DNA of 64,000 nt from a virus. Lineage: Duplodnaviria > Caudoviricetes. The stretch is from the IMG/VR virus record IMGVR_UViG_3300021400_003144. One strand, given 5' to 3'. Positions within the stretch are counted from its first letter, which is position 1, and every line of letters starts with the position of its first letter. Under the pieces are notes generated by a model. That model ran no database searches. It was not told where the DNA came from and saw only the letters and a program-made list of their open reading frames with translations. Positions 6,374-58,590 of the stretch are shown in pieces. Made by a program: the position numbers and the translations under genes.

Positions 6374-6994
6374 GTGCTGAATAAAACAGTGATAGGAAAG
6401 ATTAAGTTTATACTGTGTGGTATAATCTCATGTTTATTTATAATAGCTGTTACTAGGACAACTACTCTGTCTAATGTATCTGGTGGAAGTATGGAAAACA
6501 CTTATAAGAATAATGATTGGCTATTAGTAAATAGGATTGTACCTAGTATTAATAGGGGTGACATAATAGTTGCTAAGTTTAAAAATAAACTGATAGTTAA
6601 GAGAGTTATAGGTGTTGGTGGTGACATTGTTGAAATAAAAGATAATCAATTATATGTAAATAATTCTTTAAAGGATGAAGATTATATCAAGGAAGATATG
6701 AAAGAAGCTAATATGAGCATAAGAGTTCCTGTAAAGGAATTGTTCTTACTTGGAGATAACAGAAATAATAGTGTTGATAGTAGAAATATAGCTGTTGGTT
6801 GTGTAAGTGAATCTGATGTTATAGGCAAGGTAATGTTTGATTTAGGTAATGACATATCTGGATATATAAACTTCCTACTGATGTTACTTATATGCTGTAC
6901 TATTATTGTTGTTAGTGTTGAGAAAATAATAAATATAATGTTTATAAACATTGATAAAGCTGAAATGGCTGCATTGAAGATTGATAATCAATAA
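6374..6994 (+). CDS. lepB: Signal peptidase I (S26)
   Basis: N-terminal TM, SGGSMENT (catalytic Ser), LIVKRVIG (catalytic Lys), GDNRNNSVDSR. Confidence 0.9.
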   Translation: MLNKTVIGKIKFILCGIISCLFIIAVTRTTTLSNVSGGSMENTYKNNDWLLVNRIVPSINRGDIIVAKFKNKLIVKRVIGVGGDIVEIKDNQLYVNNSLKDEDYIKEDMKEANMSIRVPVKELFLLGDNRNNSVDSRNIAVGCVSESDVIGKVMFDLGNDISGYINFLLMLLICCTIIVVSVEKIINIMFINIDKAEMAALKIDNQ

Positions 6995-7094: not shown

Positions 7095-7877
7095 ATGAGG
7101 AAATACACATTGAATTTATTAAAGGATGATATAAGGAATGGAAACTTCTATGCAGTATATCAGCCTATAGTAAGCAAAGACAATTTGCAGATTGTCTATA
7201 GTGAAGTCTTAACAAGACTTAAAGGAAACTATAAGGTTTGCATTCAGGATGTTATTGAGTTAGCAGAGAGAAATGGGTTGATACAAGAGATTTATAACTT
7301 GATAACTAATAAAGTAGGTCAGTTTCTATATTTTTATGAAAATCAGCTCTATGATGTTGAGAGGTTGACAATAAATGTTTCGCCTTATCAATTAACTGGA
7401 AGTGCATTTCAGATGTATAGAAAGCTAACATATTACTTATTTAAGTGGCATGTAAAACCAAGTAGGATAGCATTTGAAATTACAGAGAGTAAAGAAATAA
7501 GGAACGTAGATGAAGTGAATAAGCTAATTTATATGCTTAGACAATCTGGTTTCTTGATTATGTTGGATGATTATGGTTCAGCTTATTCTAATTTAAACTC
7601 ATTAATAGATTTTGAATTTGATTTAGTAAAAATAGATAAGCATTTGATTGACAGATTGAGCGTGGGTAATAACTTTAATAAGGTTATGTTTAATATAAAT
7701 GCTCTTAAGAACTCAGGATATAAAATTTTGATTGAGGGCATTGATAAAGATAATTTCACATTGGCTAGTAAGATACCCTGTGACTACTATCAAGGATTTA
7801 TTTATTCAAAACCATTAATGACAACTGATTATCTTAGAACAATAAGAACAAGATGCAGATATAATTCCGTATCTTAG
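7095..7877 (+). CDS. EAL-domain c-di-GMP phosphodiesterase (stand-alone)
   Basis: YQPIV, EVLTR, INVSP, FEITE, DDYGSAYS, VKID, EGI, QGFIYSKP. Confidence 0.9.
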   Translation: MRKYTLNLLKDDIRNGNFYAVYQPIVSKDNLQIVYSEVLTRLKGNYKVCIQDVIELAERNGLIQEIYNLITNKVGQFLYFYENQLYDVERLTINVSPYQLTGSAFQMYRKLTYYLFKWHVKPSRIAFEITESKEIRNVDEVNKLIYMLRQSGFLIMLDDYGSAYSNLNSLIDFEFDLVKIDKHLIDRLSVGNNFNKVMFNINALKNSGYKILIEGIDKDNFTLASKIPCDYYQGFIYSKPLMTTDYLRTIRTRCRYNSVS

Positions 7878-18688: not shown

Positions 18689-18717
18689 TTGACAAAGTTT
18701 TGAAAGTTTGTTATAAT
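18689..18717 (+). promoter_or_regulatory. Consensus sigma70/sigmaA promoter for tRNA cluster
   Basis: TTGACA-17 nt-TATAAT with TG extension. Confidence 0.85.
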
Positions 18718-18787
18718 AATGTATGTAAGGTTGAGTGAGAGATACTCAATGATAAATTAAAATCTTAATATTCATAGTGCCTAGAGG

Positions 18788-18827
18788 CTAAGGTTTATGT
18801 GTGCCGAAAGAAAAACACATACTTTAG
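18788..18827 (+). repeat. Conserved hairpin copy 1 (copy 2 at 18967-19006)
   Basis: aaggtttatgtgt-gccgaaagaaaa-acacata. Confidence 0.7.
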
Positions 18828-18831
18828 ACAT

Positions 18832-18904: not shown

Positions 18905-18966
18905 TTATCTAATGTTAATTAGATAATTATTATTCATGTTAAAGTTTCACTTTAATGCGTTTAATG

Positions 18967-19006
18967 TTAAGGTTTATGTGTACCGAAAGAAAAACACATA
19001 ACTTAA
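18967..19006 (+). repeat. Conserved hairpin copy 2
   Basis: aaggtttatgtgt-accgaaagaaaa-acacata. Confidence 0.7.
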
Positions 19007-19089
19007 ACATGTATTTGGAAAAACCCTTCTGATAGGGATTACATTCGGATACTCTGACCATTGAGCTAAATGTCCATAATACATGTTTA
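19004..19089 (+). ncRNA. Putative small RNA antisense to tRNA 5' half (copy 1)
   Basis: 12-bp closing stem; AACCCTT..ATAGGGATTA hairpin; 19046-19075 complementary to the 5' part of the downstream tRNA. Confidence 0.55.
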
Positions 19090-19092
19090 TAA

Positions 19093-19166
19093 AGACTCTT
19101 AGCTCAGCTGGTAAGAGCATCCGGCTCATAACCGGACGGTCCTGGGTTCAAGTCCCAGAGAGTCTA
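19093..19166 (+). tRNA. tRNA-Ile2/Met(CAT)
   Basis: agactct/agagtct; tccgg-ctcataa-ccgga; ctggg-ttcaagt-cccag. Confidence 0.9.
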
Positions 19167-19201
19167 CTAAAATAAATTAAATATACAAAGGAGTATGGAA
19201 A

Positions 19202-21395: not shown

Positions 21396-22226
21396 GTGAC
21401 ATTATATGAAGGGAACAGACATTGCATGACAAATTTACAGGCATTAGACTTAAAAAGTAGGGTACTACATGGAGATTATGATGTAGTTTATCAGCCTATT
21501 GTAGGCAGGGAAGAGTACAAATATACTTTTTATTGTGAGACACTATTCAGGGATCAGAAGAGTGATATAAATGTATTTGATGAGATACAAGTAATAGATA
21601 GACTTGGTCTTAGTAATAAGCTTATAGAGACAGAACTTTATAAAATATGTACTAACTTAGATAGTTATAACATAAAGAATTGTGGATTAAACAGATTTAC
21701 AATAAATATATCTCCAGCTATAATAGATTGCTGTAGAGATGTTCCAGAGATATGTGATATAATGCTTGGGTACATATATAAATATACGAAGCCAGATAGT
21801 ATAGCTTTTGAGTTTACTGAGATGCATAACATATATGACTTTGCAAAGTTAAGAGACTTTGTAAGAATAATGAGAAAGTATGGATTTGAGTTTATGTTTG
21901 ATGATTTTGGTGAAGGAAGCTCAAATTATAGCATGCTATTTCACTTAGAAGATGTTAGAACACTTAAGATAAGTAGAGAGTCTGTCTTGGCATATCTTAA
22001 TAGAGCACCTGGAACAAGGAGTTTTATTGATAGTGTAAATCATCTTAGAGATGAGGGCTATAGTGTAATATGCGAAGGCATTGATACTGATACTAAAAAA
22101 TTCTTAGACTTTATAGATTGTAATTATGTGCAAGGATTTATGTATCATAAACCAATGGATTGGGTAAGTTTAAGAGATAATGTGTTAGAGCCTCAGCGAG
22201 TTCTTTTAGGTGGCTGTTCATATTAA
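21396..22226 (+). CDS. EAL-domain c-di-GMP phosphodiesterase (stand-alone), second copy
   Basis: YQPIV, ETLFR, INISP, FEFTE, DDFGEGSS, EGI, QGFMYHKP. Confidence 0.85.
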   Translation: MTLYEGNRHCMTNLQALDLKSRVLHGDYDVVYQPIVGREEYKYTFYCETLFRDQKSDINVFDEIQVIDRLGLSNKLIETELYKICTNLDSYNIKNCGLNRFTINISPAIIDCCRDVPEICDIMLGYIYKYTKPDSIAFEFTEMHNIYDFAKLRDFVRIMRKYGFEFMFDDFGEGSSNYSMLFHLEDVRTLKISRESVLAYLNRAPGTRSFIDSVNHLRDEGYSVICEGIDTDTKKFLDFIDCNYVQGFMYHKPMDWVSLRDNVLEPQRVLLGGCSY

Positions 22227-25351: not shown

Positions 25352-25427
25352 TGAGATGTAGCTCAGAGGGCAAGAGCAGATGATGCTTAAGAATCATGTG
25401 TCGTGAGTTCGAGTCTCACCATCTCAG
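25352..25427 (+). tRNA. tRNA-like RNA with atypical 8-nt anticodon loop
   Basis: tgagatg/catctca, normal D and T arms; atgat-gcttaaga-atcat. Confidence 0.65.
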
Positions 25428-25446
25428 CTAGGCGCTAAGCCTTATA

Positions 25447-25675: not shown

Positions 25676-26284
25676 ATAGAAGTCATTAATATGGTAGTGA
25701 GTTTAACTCAGTGAAGTCATCTTAATCAAATGGCTGAGACACGATTCGTAAGAAGCTAACTTTTAGTTAATGGGGGTACTCTTAACTGATGGTCTTGGAA
25801 TACAGTGATGTGTTTTGAGGTAACAGCAAAATGGTTGTGCGGCTCAGGATTGTGGTACTATATTAATCGCCAGTTAAAGCAGCATTCTCATGGTTCCCGC
25901 AATAGACGCTCCAGTGGAGAATAACCCTGATGCCTATAGATTGGTAGTCTATAGGAGATGCAAGTAAGGGAAATACCAAAACAAGGGAATTTGTCGTGAT
26001 ACTATTGAAAGATAGCTATAACATGAGTTTGGTGTACAAGTAGCTCAAGACAGTAATTCTAATGATCAATTGGAATTTTCCAATACAAGGAAAAATAATC
26101 TGAATGATGGGTGAAAGTTGTTGGTAGTCAGTCCAGCGGCAGAGTTGGTACTTAGTACTGGGGCAAAAAGCTATAGGGTCGCTCTCTATGGTTCAGGTTT
26201 GTCTCCTGTGTAGCTTAATAAACTGGAAGTTTAAATGTAGCAGGCGGAAACGGCAGACTCATTACCATATTAATGACTTTTATA
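25676..26284 (+). ncRNA. Large ornate ncRNA, probably ROOL
   Basis: ~610 nt closed by ~25-bp terminal helix (aagtcattaatatggtagtgagttt / agactcattaccatattaatgactt); tRNA-cluster context; 3' part tctgaatgatgggtgaaagttg...gcaaaaag..agggtcgctc resembles ROOL as recalled from memory. Confidence 0.65.
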
Positions 26285-26648: not shown

Positions 26649-26894
26649 TAATTAAGGTCTATCCTGCTCGTCTTAACTGGGTTGAGTAGGGGAGAGAAAG
26701 AAAGCTCTAGTATAGGCTGTGGTTCTATTAAAATGAACTACTACGAAAAGAGTCAGGAAATCTGAATGATACGTAGTGCTGTAAGGTTAGAAACTACAGT
26801 GTGGGAGGGACTTATAGGGCAGAGTTAACGACTCTGAGACGCTTCCTAATAAATGCACCGTGCAACTCGGTAAAGCCTATGTAGACCTTAATTA
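26649..26894 (+). ncRNA. Unclassified ~245-nt structured RNA
   Basis: Perfect 13-bp closing stem taattaaggtcta/tagaccttaatta; inner ataggct/agcctat; T-loop-like accg-tgcaact-cggt. Confidence 0.55.
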
Positions 26895-27952: not shown

Positions 27953-28340
27953 GGGGTAGTACTGGTTTCGACGGGGTACTACAAGTTAAATAAGCATGCA
28001 GATGGTGTCAGTGAACATCTTAAAAAACATTGGCAAGAAATAAAGTTCAATCAGAACAGACCAGTAGCGATGGCTGCTTAATCCCTTTGTAAGGGATACC
28101 ATCTAGGATTTAATCCTATAAAGCATTTAGTAGCGGTGTGTACCCTAACGCTAGATGCCTAAAAGTAAAGTACTCAAGATTGGTTTAATGAGTGTGATAA
28201 CTAGTCTCTGAAAACACTCTGAGGTAGTCATATGGAGGCGCTGTCCACCAAGTGACGCTTTATAAATAGTAAAACCAGACAAGCATGTAGAAAGTTTAAT
28301 GGAAGTGTTTCGGACAGGGGTTCGATTCCCCTCTACTCCA
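27953..28340 (+). ncRNA. ssrA: tmRNA
   Basis: 5' ggggtagtactggtttcgacgggg; 3' gacaggggttcgattcccctctactcca; tag frame 28046-28081 FNQNRPVAMAA*. Confidence 0.92.
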
Positions 28341-28440
28341 TGAGCGGTTTAAATGAACTGCTAACCGGTAAGGGTTCCATGTATACATCCGGTCAGAAAA
28401 TGGAACATGGTGGTGGACATAGACGGTTGAGTCTATAAAA

Positions 28441-30006: not shown

Positions 30007-30068
30007 ATTACAAGAAGAATGGGTAAAGTGAATCAAGATTGTTAGCTTGACTATTCTACTGAATTTAT

Positions 30069-30145
30069 TTCTCAATAGCTCAGATGGGAGAGCAGTTGAC
30101 TAGCTATAAGTCAAAAGGTCGTAGGTTCGAGTCCTACTTGAGGAA
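30069..30145 (+). tRNA. tRNA-Asn-like scaffold with altered anticodon arm (central CTA)
   Basis: ttctcaa/ttgagga; ttgact-agctata-agtcaa; gtagg-ttcgagt-cctac. Confidence 0.65.
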
Positions 30146-30188
30146 TGTAGAATAGAGCTATTAAAATTTGACTATTCTAATAATATTT

Positions 30189-30259
30189 TATTGGGAACAT
30201 AGATTAAGTAAGAACCCTTATATAGGGATTAACTAACCAATTGAGCTATGCTTCCAATA
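30189..30259 (+). ncRNA. Putative small RNA antisense to tRNA 5' half (copy 2)
   Basis: tattgg/ccaata closing stem; AACCCTT..ATAGGGATTA; 30233-30255 complementary to the downstream tRNA-Asn 5' end. Confidence 0.55.
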
Positions 30260-30262
30260 TAA

Positions 30263-30336
30263 GGGAATATAGCTCAGCAGGTTAGAGCATCTGACTGTTA
30301 ATCAGAGGGTCATATGTTCAAGTCCTACTGTTCCCG
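30263..30336 (+). tRNA. tRNA-Asn(GTT), weak T stem
   Basis: tctga-ctgttaa-tcaga; T stem atatg/cctac has 2 mismatches. Confidence 0.75.
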
Positions 30337-30350
30337 TTATATACTTTAGA

Positions 30351-30380
30351 GTACTACTTATTACATAAGTAGTATTTTTT
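30351..30380 (+). terminator. Intrinsic terminator ending RNA island
   Basis: gtactacttat/ataagtagtat + T run. Confidence 0.7.
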
Positions 30381-30445
30381 ATTTTTATAGATATTCTTTT
30401 GGTAGTTAAAATAAAAAGAATATTTATTAATAGGAGGAATATACA

Positions 30446-32576: not shown

Positions 32577-33830
32577 ATGGATAAGAACAAATTTGAAGTT
32601 GAATTTAGGAATAATGAACATTGGGATGCATCTTATGAGCGTCTGATGTTGAAGAAATTAACACAAGAAGAAAAAGATGAACTGTGGAAGCTAAGTAATA
32701 TATACAAAGAAGATATAATTAGTCAGATAATGAATGGAACATATACATGGTCAATTCCTAGAAAGCTCAAGATTGCAAAGCATGAGAGCACTAAGAAGAG
32801 AATCGTTTATATGTATTCAGTTAAAGATAGATTTGTACAAGGAGTGTTATATAGAACACTTAGTGCATATTTTAAAGACAGTTTAAGTAATAACTGTTTC
32901 AGTTATAAGAGAGATGTTAGTACTTCTAGTGCTATTGATTATATAAAAGATAACAGAACAAAAGAATTGAGCTATGGTGTTAAAACTGATATACATGCTT
33001 ATTTCAATAGTGTATGCAGAGAAAAAGTAGAAAGTGCTATTGATGAAATAACAGAAGGCTGTGAAGGTCTTAATAAAACATTAAAGAATTTAATGTTAAA
33101 TGATACAGTTCTTTGGGAAGGCAAAGAAATACAAGAGTGGAAATCACTTATACCTGGAAGTCCTTTAGGAAGCTTTTTTGCTAACTGGTGTTTAAAAGAG
33201 TTGGATAGAGAGTTTGATAAGGCTGGAAAGGTATATGCAAGGTACAGTGATGATATAATTGTACTTGAAGATAGTGAAGATAAGTTAAAAGATGACATTA
33301 AGATAATACAGAGATACATAGCAGATTTAGGGTTGGAGCTTAATCCTGATAAATATAAATGGTTTAAATCTGGAGAGGACATAGATTTTCTAGGACTTAG
33401 GCTTAATGATAATGGTGTTATTGACATTTCTGACCATGCTAAGCAGAAGATGAAAAAGCAAATACACAGATGGTGTAGAAAAGGCAGAATGGAAATAGAA
33501 AGAGATGGAAAAGAGTTTAAAGATGTAGCTCGTAGAATAAATAGAAGGCTTAATAGAAAGAATTTCAAGTGCTATATTGATAATGAAGCAACATTTGGGT
33601 GGTGTGCATATGCTTTTCCTAGAATAACAACAGTAGAGTCATTAAGGGAATTGGACTTATACACTAAAGAAAGACTTAGAGCATTAAAAACTGGTAAGAA
33701 TAACAAAGCTAATTATAGGAAGATGCAGGAGGATGAGTTTAAAGACATTGGTTGGGTTAGCCTAGTTCAGCTATATTATCTATTTAAAAAAGATTTTGAT
33801 TACTATTGTGAAGTTATAGAGTTGCTATAG
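32577..33830 (+). CDS. Reverse transcriptase (group II-like / unknown-group class)
   Basis: KKRIVY..KDRFVQ, KTDIHAYFNSV, IPGSPLGSFFAN, YARYSDD, LNPDK, IDFLG, thumb GWCAYAF. Confidence 0.93.
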   Translation: MDKNKFEVEFRNNEHWDASYERLMLKKLTQEEKDELWKLSNIYKEDIISQIMNGTYTWSIPRKLKIAKHESTKKRIVYMYSVKDRFVQGVLYRTLSAYFKDSLSNNCFSYKRDVSTSSAIDYIKDNRTKELSYGVKTDIHAYFNSVCREKVESAIDEITEGCEGLNKTLKNLMLNDTVLWEGKEIQEWKSLIPGSPLGSFFANWCLKELDREFDKAGKVYARYSDDIIVLEDSEDKLKDDIKIIQRYIADLGLELNPDKYKWFKSGEDIDFLGLRLNDNGVIDISDHAKQKMKKQIHRWCRKGRMEIERDGKEFKDVARRINRRLNRKNFKCYIDNEATFGWCAYAFPRITTVESLRELDLYTKERLRALKTGKNNKANYRKMQEDEFKDIGWVSLVQLYYLFKKDFDYYCEVIELL

Positions 33831-33840
33831 AGGAAAGAAT

Positions 33841-34926
33841 ATGGACTTCTATATAATGAATAAAGACATTGAGGTAGCAATATTTAGATGTAGTTATACT
33901 TGTAATATAGAACAGATAAACATAACATATATAATAAGACAAGATTTATTACCTAAGGGATTAGTAAATGGAATGAGTCTAACTGAGTGGATTAATAGTA
34001 GATTGGCTATATCTAATAGACTAGATATAATGACTTTATTCAGAAGTATAGGGCTTAAGAATAAAGCAGATATTCTTATAGTAACTAAGGGAGTATCCTT
34101 AAATGATACTTATTGGATAAAAGAAGTTACAAATAAATCATTAAAATGGAAGAATGTATCACCTTATATAAATCCTTTAAACAGAAATATGTCTGATTAT
34201 TCTTTTGAAATCAGTAAAATAATAAAGAATATAGGCATGTCTCCTGACTTTGCTACTTCTGGTAATTTTCCTAAGTGCTGGAAGAGAATAAATGGACACA
34301 TGTATCTTATAAAGGGAGGCTCAAGATTATTTAGTAATGCTGGAAATGAAATTTATTCAGAGTTGTTATCTAGTGAGTTACTTACTAAATTAAGAATAAA
34401 TCATGTAAAATATGATTATATCAAATATAAAGGCTATGATGCCACTAAGTGTTTAAATATGTGTACTGAAGATATTGGAATATATCCATTACATCATGTA
34501 AATACTCGTGTAAATAACTTTGTTGATTTGCTTGAATACTATAAGTATGATAAAAATATCTTAGATATGTTACTGTTTGACTATTTAAGTTTAAATACAG
34601 ACAGACATTGGGGTAATATATCCGTATTTGTTAATAACAATAATCAACAGATATTAGGATTTACTCCTATATATGATAATAATTTGGCTTTTGTACCTTA
34701 TTATACAGGCAGTGAGAGATTAGAGGATTATATATGTAATAGTGAGGGAAGTCTTGTAGCTTCAGATGGAATGTCATTTGATGATTTATTTAAGCTTATA
34801 GATTGTAAGTATGTAAGAGAAAAGATAGAGTTAATCAAAGGAATTAAGCTTACATACAAGTGTAAGAGAACTGATATAGCTAATGAAGTTTTAGATATGC
34901 AGTTAAAGAAAATAAAGAGAACATGA
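33841..34926 (+). CDS. HipA/CtkA-like Ser/Thr kinase
   Basis: TSGNFPKCW, YLIKG, FDYLSLNTDRHWGN, PIYDNNLA. Confidence 0.8.
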   Translation: MDFYIMNKDIEVAIFRCSYTCNIEQINITYIIRQDLLPKGLVNGMSLTEWINSRLAISNRLDIMTLFRSIGLKNKADILIVTKGVSLNDTYWIKEVTNKSLKWKNVSPYINPLNRNMSDYSFEISKIIKNIGMSPDFATSGNFPKCWKRINGHMYLIKGGSRLFSNAGNEIYSELLSSELLTKLRINHVKYDYIKYKGYDATKCLNMCTEDIGIYPLHHVNTRVNNFVDLLEYYKYDKNILDMLLFDYLSLNTDRHWGNISVFVNNNNQQILGFTPIYDNNLAFVPYYTGSERLEDYICNSEGSLVASDGMSFDDLFKLIDCKYVREKIELIKGIKLTYKCKRTDIANEVLDMQLKKIKRT

Positions 34927-57558: not shown

Positions 57559-58590
57559 ATGATAAGAGACTATATGACAATTATAAGGCAGTTATTTCTA
57601 ACTTGTCAGAAATTTGGATACAACTTTTATACAAATAATCATGGTGTATTTAAAGTTGAAGCTCCTAACTTAGTGATGCTAATTAGTAAAGATGCTGTTG
57701 AGATAGAGAGTAACAAATTTAATATGACATTGCACCCTTATGATATAGGGATACTTACTAATGAAAGAACAACTGATATACATGTAAATGAGTTTGAGCG
57801 TGAAAGGAAATTCAGTGCATTGAAGTTTAAACTGAATTTCTATATGGGAAGAACAGTTGGTGTAAATGTAGGAGTTGTATGTTCATTAGAAATAGATAAA
57901 AATACAGGTGAGGTTACAAGAGTATTTAATCCTTGTAAAACAAATGTATATAATAAGTACTGTGACATTGATGGAAGAGCTTATGAAGATGTATTAAAGC
58001 TTGGTAAAATGGCTTCCAATATAAGTATTACAGAATACAGAAATAAATTTAAGGTAAATTTAGGATATATAGATAAGAGCATAGATGATGTTGTGAGAGT
58101 AATTAAAAAGTTAATTCAATACATTCCTGATAATGCAGTACCTAATGTATGTATAAATGAGCTTAGGAACTTGAAATTCATTAAGAGATATGAGAGTGAC
58201 AATAGTGAATTATATATGTGCGGTGAGTATTATGTATTAAATCATGGAAATGGTAAAAGATACTTCTTTAAGGTTAATGAAGATTGTTACAAGACTCTTA
58301 AGATAAATAACATTATGTTAAATGAATATGCAAATGATAGAAATGGGATGCATAATGTAAGAGTAATTGGTGACAAGAAGAATAAATTAACTCAGTTTAT
58401 TGTATTGTTTGAATACAATGGGTATGAAATTATTTTTAATTTTTTAAATAATTTATTCTATATAAAGGTTAATAACTTTCTGATAGATTGTACAGATACA
58501 TTTATAAAAGCCTTTAATAGATTAGATAGGATTGTTCAGCATCAGGATGCAAATGATAAGTGCATAGAAATTAAAAATATGGTTTATTAA
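57559..58590 (+). CDS. Hypothetical protein
   Basis: 343 aa. Confidence 0.6.
   Translation: MIRDYMTIIRQLFLTCQKFGYNFYTNNHGVFKVEAPNLVMLISKDAVEIESNKFNMTLHPYDIGILTNERTTDIHVNEFERERKFSALKFKLNFYMGRTVGVNVGVVCSLEIDKNTGEVTRVFNPCKTNVYNKYCDIDGRAYEDVLKLGKMASNISITEYRNKFKVNLGYIDKSIDDVVRVIKKLIQYIPDNAVPNVCINELRNLKFIKRYESDNSELYMCGEYYVLNHGNGKRYFFKVNEDCYKTLKINNIMLNEYANDRNGMHNVRVIGDKKNKLTQFIVLFEYNGYEIIFNFLNNLFYIKVNNFLIDCTDTFIKAFNRLDRIVQHQDANDKCIEIKNMVY

Follow-up and report, generated by a model that had tools for sequence, protein, structure and literature searches.

The stretch of DNA analysed in this work, hereafter called the window, comprises 64,000 nucleotides and corresponds, in reverse orientation, to the initial 64 kb of a metagenomic scaffold of 282,865 bp (ENA ERZ28612966, scaffold_29). 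All large ORFs of the window are carried by the plus strand, and for most of them no known family was found with Pfam and PHROG. The phage nature of the scaffold is assumed from its size, the arrangement of its genes and the presence of RNA genes, since no hallmark phage structural gene was present among the window ORFs scanned. The same Pfam and PHROG scans revealed no Cas family among the larger ORFs of the window and no transposase family among its large ORFs. RNA genes are concentrated between 18.8 and 30.4 kb, where ten tRNAs, a tmRNA (27953-28343, 119 bits) and a ROOL RNA (25683-26273, 308 bits) are found. This RNA island also holds a weak RAGATH-33-like match (26666-26773; 37.9 bits, far under the 120-bit threshold) and a tRNA (25352-25428) for which ARAGORN reported an 8-nt anticodon loop with the four-base anticodon 'ttaa' (48.5 bits with the Rfam tRNA model), and which could be a suppressor or frameshift tRNA. 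Among the protein-coding genes, two encode EAL-domain proteins (7095-7877 and 21396-22226), one a signal peptidase S26 homologue (6374-6994; another S26 gene was located on the scaffold near 83.6 kb), and a reverse transcriptase gene (RVT_1, E 6e-24) is directly followed by that of a HipA-like kinase (weak Pfam matches), both within 32577-34926.

The element under study, i.e. copy 2 (30189-30259, plus strand), lies between two tRNA genes. An odd 79-nt tRNA with anticodon AGC (30068-30146, ARAGORN) is located directly upstream, and tRNA-Asn(GTT) follows at 30263-30336 (ARAGORN; 58.3 bits with the Rfam tRNA model). The sequence given for copy 2 in the preliminary description was retrieved at this place. 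Copy 2 starts with the 5' arm of a closing stem (30189-30207, delimited from fold and sequence), in which GGGAACATAG resembles the tRNA-Asn 5' end in the sense orientation (9/10). Then comes a CRISPR-like repeat (30211-30235), the core of which is common to a mini-array and to the relatives described below. Its hairpin motif core is at 30213-30230, and its stem pairs 30215-30218 with 30224-30227 around a 5-nt loop, after which an 8-nt tag-like ATTAACTA is found (30228-30235). The rest of the element, up to the tRNA, is a guide-like tail (30236-30262) antisense to the leader and the first 20-23 nt of a tRNA; within it lie a box, ACCAATTGAGCTA (30236-30248), and, at 30241-30259, the 3' strand of the closing stem. 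In the predicted fold, the outermost pair of this stem joins 30189 to 30259, so that 3 nt separate the stem from the tRNA. The z-score of the plus-strand fold against shuffles was -2.8 for copy 2. Downstream of tRNA-Asn, an AT-rich hairpin followed by a T run was read by eye (30352-30385, plus strand); it is the probable terminator closing the succession odd tRNA, copy 2 and tRNA-Asn, and received no call in the terminator scan because its stem has too few G-C pairs. The odd tRNA is itself bordered on both sides by a 12-nt direct repeat, TTGACTATTCTA (30047-30059 and 30167-30180).

A second element of the same construction, copy 1 (19004-19089, plus strand), is found at the other end of the RNA island. 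The 5' arm of its closing stem (19004-19019) was delimited from the fold, and its CRISPR-like repeat (19020-19045) from the sequence, the motif count and the comparison of repeats. The repeat stem pairs 19024-19027 with 19034-19037 around a 6-nt loop and is followed by the tag-like ATTACATT (19038-19045). The guide-like tail (19046-19092), recognised by its antisense relation to tRNAs, includes the box (19057-19068) as well as the 3' strand of its closing stem (19073-19089). Position 19004 pairs with 19089 and, after a 3-nt gap, tRNA-Met(CAT) begins directly (19093-19167; ARAGORN and Rfam). The equal 3-nt gap before the tRNA, already pointed out in the preliminary description, thus holds for the predicted folds of both copies (30259/30263 in copy 2 and 19089/19093 in copy 1). 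The plus-strand fold of copy 1 has a z-score of -4.5 against shuffles.

Upstream of copy 1, a consensus sigma-70-type promoter (12/12 with TG; 18689-18717, plus strand) precedes in order a tRNA-Met gene starting at 18831, copy 1 itself and the tRNA-Met at 19093. This promoter lies 300 nt upstream of copy 1, and the terminator scan detected no site between it and the tRNA-Met at 19093. A duplicated leader, composed of a hairpin of about 26 nt and then about 10 nt, is present both ahead of the tRNA-Met at 18831 (18782-18830) and ahead of copy 1 (18958-19010). Since the same leader precedes a tRNA in one case and copy 1 in the other, copy 1 occupies the position where a tRNA would be expected. 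The duplicated leader is also kept in one of the two relatives presented below (L146).

In both copies the parts succeed one another in the same order, i.e. the 5' arm, the hairpin AACCCTT-N(2-3)-ATAGGGATTA, the tail with ACCA(A)TTGAGCTA, the 3' arm, three unpaired nucleotides and the tRNA. Two exact occurrences of the motif AACCCTT-N(1-6)-ATAGGGATT were counted in the window, vs 0 in 100 shuffles. Two further motif matches, one at 57735 inside an ORF and one inside the tmRNA, were discarded as chance occurrences, as ATT does not follow in either. No ORF of at least 60 aa overlaps either copy, and the Rfam 15 curated covariance models gave no plus-strand match of note at either of them.

The hairpin shared by the two elements, the handle of the preliminary description, is not a private small-RNA scaffold, as comparison with the rest of the genome showed. 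On the same scaffold, at about 95.4 kb in the window frame, a mini-array (L143:14845-14990) contains three repeats with a 62-63 nt period, and its repeat core, AACCCTT-N(2-3)-ATAGGGATT, is the same as that of both tRNA-linked copies, with a G coming next. In the approximately 101 kb of scaffold that were read, the repeat family has five members, three in the mini-array and two linked to tRNAs, all on the plus strand. The repeats have a 4-bp CCCT/AGGG stem and a loop of 5-6 nt and, once the relatives are included, an invariant ATT comes next in 8/8 of them, which is a layout of the Cas6-substrate type. The 3' ending separates two classes, ATTA being found in 5/5 tRNA-linked repeats vs ATTG in 3/3 array repeats; it is possible that the tRNA-linked repeats have a different protein partner. 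The 8-nt tag-like ATTAACTA is common to copy 2 and to repeat 1 of L146, i.e. to two different loci. Direct repeats with regular and unique spacers, as expected from an array, are present in the family at L143 and L146, and each window copy has a single repeat.

Outside this genome, arrays whose repeats have the form CCCT-loop-AGGGATTGAAAC were found in a Clostridia MAG and in a Dojkabacteria MAG, and no match to array-type motifs was obtained in IMG/VR. Heterogeneous repeats with an identical 16-nt core are also present in Anaerofustis butyriciformans beside cas10, csm2-5, cas6 and a csm6-like CARF gene. This type III-A locus (L127, G001:C1:384.7-385.2 kb) comprises two tiny arrays of heterogeneous repeats, two of which have as their 16-nt core that of repeat 1 of the L143 mini-array; no bacterial repeats closer to the family were encountered. 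This core identity may hint at the host clade or at the source of the repeat family. Judged from sequence, the common 'handle' of the two elements is thus the repeat, of CRISPR type, found in arrays of the same 283-kb phage-like genome, and each element is best read as a CRISPR unit with one repeat, inserted in a tRNA operon.

Two related contigs inform the evolutionary reading of these elements. The first one, L145 (3.5 kb), encodes a homologue of the protein located downstream of copy 2 (43% identical) and carries a 97%-identical version of the odd tRNA, after which an orthologous unit is found. In this unit, the repeat persists with a U-G change in its hairpin stem, the closing stem is made of different letters and the box is degenerate; no tRNA follows the unit in L145. 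The 12-nt repeat flanking the odd tRNA has a counterpart in this contig, exact upstream (about 829-841) and with 2/12 positions differing downstream (about 951-962). The second contig, L146 (7 kb), encodes a homologue of the protein located upstream of copy 1 (77% identical) and, at the site equivalent to that of copy 1, displays a pair of identical repeats 57 nt apart, with a 37-nt spacer that is not tRNA-like, a 43-nt tail and an orthologous tRNA-Met. The whole L146 unit is enclosed by a 16-bp closing stem of different sequence. In two alignments read by eye, the repeat core was far better conserved than the tails. Together, a change in repeat number at one locus and a core conserved above its flanks would be expected if the locus is functional and of the CRISPR type, but not if an inversion arose by chance. 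The preliminary description had likewise argued for selection over chance inversion, and its argument gains from the conserved motif, from the examples at the same positions in L145 and L146, and from the maintenance of the stems by different sequences. A lack of further examples, which it had named as grounds for refutation, is thereby contradicted.

These relatives also bear on a reading without any function, according to which each element is the relic of an inverted partial duplication of the 5' end of a tRNA gene around a stray repeat, generated e.g. by template switching or recombination at a mini-array beside tRNA genes, and is now decaying. The tails do diverge quickly, the tRNA likeness is strong in the window, eroded in L146 and weak in L145, and copy 1 aligns as an L146-type array that has lost part of spacer 1 and repeat 2; the target searches reported below, which came up empty, would fit as well. 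However, the core is almost unchanged in five units from three elements vs 43-77% identity for the neighbouring proteins, the closing stems persist with different sequences, and the position of the unit is kept in two separate operons. We therefore regard decay as an unlikely explanation.

The search for additional members in public collections was of little help. In IMG/VR, the motif retrieved at least 100 loci; the contexts of those listed were all unrelated, neither the box nor a tRNA was present in any of them, and they were read as chance. Among the matches listed, the phage collections in which the preliminary description proposed to look for further cases hence yielded none, and those known come from L145 and L146. 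A stricter motif covering the whole element gave one match in JGI metagenomes (L105), in a GC-rich context and with no tRNA, likewise read as chance. Neither relatives of the neighbour protein in IMG/VR or GenBank phages nor, in phage collections, similar DNA beyond tRNAs were found. It follows that the lineage is absent from IMG/VR and GenBank phages, and that finding no further examples there means little.

The tails were compared with tRNAs in both window copies. The reverse complement of the copy 1 tail corresponds to a 13-nt leader plus tRNA positions 1-38, and the copy 2 tail is the antisense of a leader and tRNA positions 1-23. On the minus strand of copy 1, the tRNA model (RF00005) gave 16.3 bits, below the 29-bit threshold, with the 5' half alone well aligned. 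A minus-strand tRNA gene was rejected, as copy 1 is subthreshold, copy 2 has no match and ARAGORN calls nothing. In agreement with the preliminary description, the antisense likeness of both window tails to tRNA 5' halves exceeded that of all 300 shuffles, the result for copy 2 being inflated by the inclusion in the tRNA set of an exact-match tRNA-Asp that had been retrieved with the sequence of copy 2 itself. The ordinary spacers of L143 and L146 showed no tRNA-5'-half likeness above shuffles.

The tails are not tuned to the tRNA beside which they lie. A recount gave again the 17/23 identity reported earlier between the reverse complement of 30233-30255 and the first 23 nt of tRNA-Asn. In a longer comparison, the copy 2 tail is 20/28 identical to tRNA-Asn and, equally, to two tRNA-like RNAs, and its predicted duplex energy favours tRNA-Lys (-28.3 vs -22.0 kcal/mol for tRNA-Asn); the claim that this element had been retargeted to tRNA-Asn is consequently not upheld, other tRNAs matching equally well or pairing better. 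The copy 1 tail is closer to tRNA-Asn (30/38) than to its neighbour tRNA-Met (28/38). In L146, the tRNA-5'-half frame of the tail is kept with respect to the neighbouring tRNA, with 16/27 identity by our own count and weak pairing (-14.6 kcal/mol), and overall tRNA likeness is no better than shuffles; in L145 it is weak. What the tails match are features common to tRNA 5' parts in general, with no specificity for the tRNA next to them. Furthermore, the four tails from the window and the relatives share the box and align as fast-diverging orthologues, and for this reason they are not freely exchanged spacers.

The preliminary description had viewed the elements as a CRISPR-independent family of anti-tRNA small RNAs, in which a protein-binding handle is joined to an antisense module retargeted to the adjacent tRNA. 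Such a family would account for the complementarity to the neighbouring tRNAs (17/23 and about 24/31), for the equal 3-nt gap and for the differing closing stems. It is nevertheless hard to reconcile with a handle that is the array repeat of the genome and with a complementarity that is not neighbour-specific and is lost in relatives, and we hold it to be highly improbable.

Potential targets of the tails were searched in several collections. Within 20% mismatches, neither the 101 kb of scaffold read nor the fragments of the relatives contained a protospacer, and the two L143 mini-array spacers likewise had no match in these sequences. Among 401 Bacillota genomes, a 29-mer from copy 1 gave no match with at most 3 mismatches, and a 23-mer from copy 2 matched generic tRNAs only, the best with 1 mismatch (at most 2 mismatches in 6/401 genomes). 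A perfect 20-23 nt match to copy 2 was detected in the tRNA-Asp of two IMG/VR contigs belonging to one lineage; it was not retained as a target, since chance suffices to explain it given the strong conservation of tRNA positions 8-23. In the collections searched, the matches do not go beyond generic tRNA likeness, and a foreign protospacer is not among them.

We propose that both elements are solitary units, each made of a repeat and a guide, that belong to the CRISPR-like repeat family of this genome, are transcribed together with tRNAs and yield a crRNA-like product directed against tRNA-like transcripts; we assign to this reading a probability of about 0.5. The units lie on the gene strand in a tRNA context, copy 1 downstream of a consensus promoter and copy 2 between two tRNAs, and their precursor would be co-transcribed with these tRNAs. 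It is established that Cas6e and Cas6f cut their hairpin at its 3' base and that type III systems trim the 3' ends of crRNAs. Here, a Cas6-type endoribonuclease would cut at the 3' base of the CCCU/AGGG hairpin and leave an 8-nt tag beginning with AUUA. The other end would be set either by RNase P, cutting where the next tRNA begins, or by 3' trimming of the type III kind; for copy 2, the predicted boundary is the RNase P site of tRNA-Asn (30263-30336). The expected products have the layout of crRNAs, i.e. a 35-nt RNA from copy 2 (30228-30262) and a 55-nt RNA from copy 1 (19038-19092). Their guide part would be able to pair with a tRNA-like transcript, over its leader and 5' half; this transcript would resemble the tRNAs of the element itself without being identical to them, and the product would be loaded by a type III-like effector. 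The targets may be foreign tRNA precursors, from the host or a rival element, or the guides may pair only partially with their targets, in the manner of crRNA-like regulators. The stretch thus recognised, leader and 5' half, would be the portion of a tRNA that is still unfolded during its synthesis.

A more specific version of this proposal, in which Cas6 and RNase P excise type III guides against the nascent tRNA 5' leaders and halves of the host or of rivals, and in which the adjacent mismatched tRNA serves as an immune replacement, appears doubtful to us. The guide reading as a whole is weakened by the closing stem, by the orthologous tails and by the separate ATTA class. The stem engages the supposed guide over its 3' half, an unusual arrangement for a crRNA precursor. 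A regulatory crRNA-like role or a role in processing in cis fits each of these three observations about as well.

As regards the latter role, the elements could be cis-acting leaders, the hairpin being a site for Cas6 or another RNase that punctuates the polycistronic tRNA transcript, and the tail and 5' arm pairing in turn with one another or with the adjacent tRNA so as to control the folding or maturation of the tRNA. Both window copies stop 3 nt ahead of a tRNA, and the 5' arm of copy 2 mimics the tRNA-Asn 5' end in sense. Moreover, the joint fold of copy 2 and tRNA-Asn favours by about 10 kcal/mol a swap, in which the tail pairs with the 5' half of the tRNA and the 5' arm with its 3' acceptor strand, over the element plus the cloverleaf (-53.2 vs -43.3). 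No such swap is predicted for copy 1 or for L146, however, and the pairing of the L146 tail with its tRNA is weak, as given above; the unit is kept in L145 without a following tRNA, and the copy 2 tail favours tRNA-Lys over its neighbour. On balance, an action in cis seems rather unlikely.

Several known systems were compared with the proposed guide units. In huge phages, compact arrays occur without cas1 and cas2, and some of their spacers are directed against host transcription or translation genes that the phage encodes itself, e.g. host σ70 or a tRNA synthetase (PMC7162821). Our family resembles these and other virus mini-arrays (PMC7162821; review PMC11656645) in its short arrays, its presence in a very large mobile element and its gene orientation, and also in its repeat number, which varies among relatives (one vs two). 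It differs from them in that the unit has a single repeat, lies inside a tRNA operon, is enclosed by a stem and stops where a tRNA begins, and in that its 'spacer' is tRNA-derived, shares its box with a paralogue and had no protospacer in our searches.

Solitary repeat units can also act as RNA anti-CRISPRs, or Racr (PMC10651486), and the window copies resemble these in that a mobile element carries one CRISPR-type repeat behind a strong promoter, at a distance from cas genes. The elements might accordingly be decoys that titrate a Cas6 or Cas7-type protein of a host with a similar repeat, the tail being irrelevant; beyond the solitary repeats, which would be strongly transcribed as in Racr, the 16-nt core that the family shares with the repeats of a Firmicute type III-A locus is in line with this idea. 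Racr mimics the host repeat and needs no guide, whereas the repeat considered here is that of the own arrays of the element, so that self-mimicry is simpler, and its conserved parts reach into the tail and the closing stem. Neither the closing stem and the box, both conserved, nor the existence of a two-repeat form whose spacer has a normal length would be explained by a decoy, which strikes us as very unlikely.

Standalone or degenerate repeats are known to give cr-like RNAs (crlRNAs) implicated in regulation and not in cleavage (PMC10120712; bioRxiv 10.1101/2024.10.29.618823). Tails with imperfect targets and a separate ATTA repeat subclass could fit this group, but known crlRNAs target the promoters of cas, toxin or defence genes, none of which was recognised here, where the likeness is to tRNA 5' halves. 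In CRISPR-associated transposons, separate truncated repeat-spacer units match tRNA genes (bioRxiv 10.1101/2021.02.06.429022), and our units recall these attachment-site guides by forming a separate single repeat-spacer class with a spacer corresponding to a close tRNA gene. Those guides, however, have 17-bp spacers with mostly perfect matches and belong to Tn7-like elements with Cas12k, whereas the match here is 60-75%, the repeat is of the kind with a Cas6-type hairpin and the large ORFs of the window include no transposase family. With identities of just 17/23 and 28/38 and no transposase family, the units do not qualify as attachment-site guides.

In engineered polycistronic tRNA-guide RNA arrays, the tRNA processing enzymes free a guide that abuts a tRNA. 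Such arrays are man-made, and a natural counterpart is suggested here by the 3-nt junction. Each of the systems compared has one or two features in common with the units, and none of them is a full match. If the guides work, they would represent a natural coupling of CRISPR guide production to tRNA processing, so far an engineering trick, a class of ATTA repeat units kept separate from the ordinary arrays of the element, and the use of tRNA-like transcripts as CRISPR targets by a mobile element with its own tRNA set; these three features together would be previously undescribed. The more modest readings as well tie the dispersed repeats of the scaffold to its RNA island, and precise predicted cleavage sites are given for them.

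Two observations concern the neighbourhood of the mini-array and the annotation of the scaffold. The L143 mini-array is located directly after a gene encoding a protein of 1240 aa and approximately 3.7 kb downstream of a McrBC-like gene pair. When window positions 60947-67738 were compared with L141, the ENA gene calls were slightly shorter (427 vs 434 aa and 1800 vs 1803 aa).
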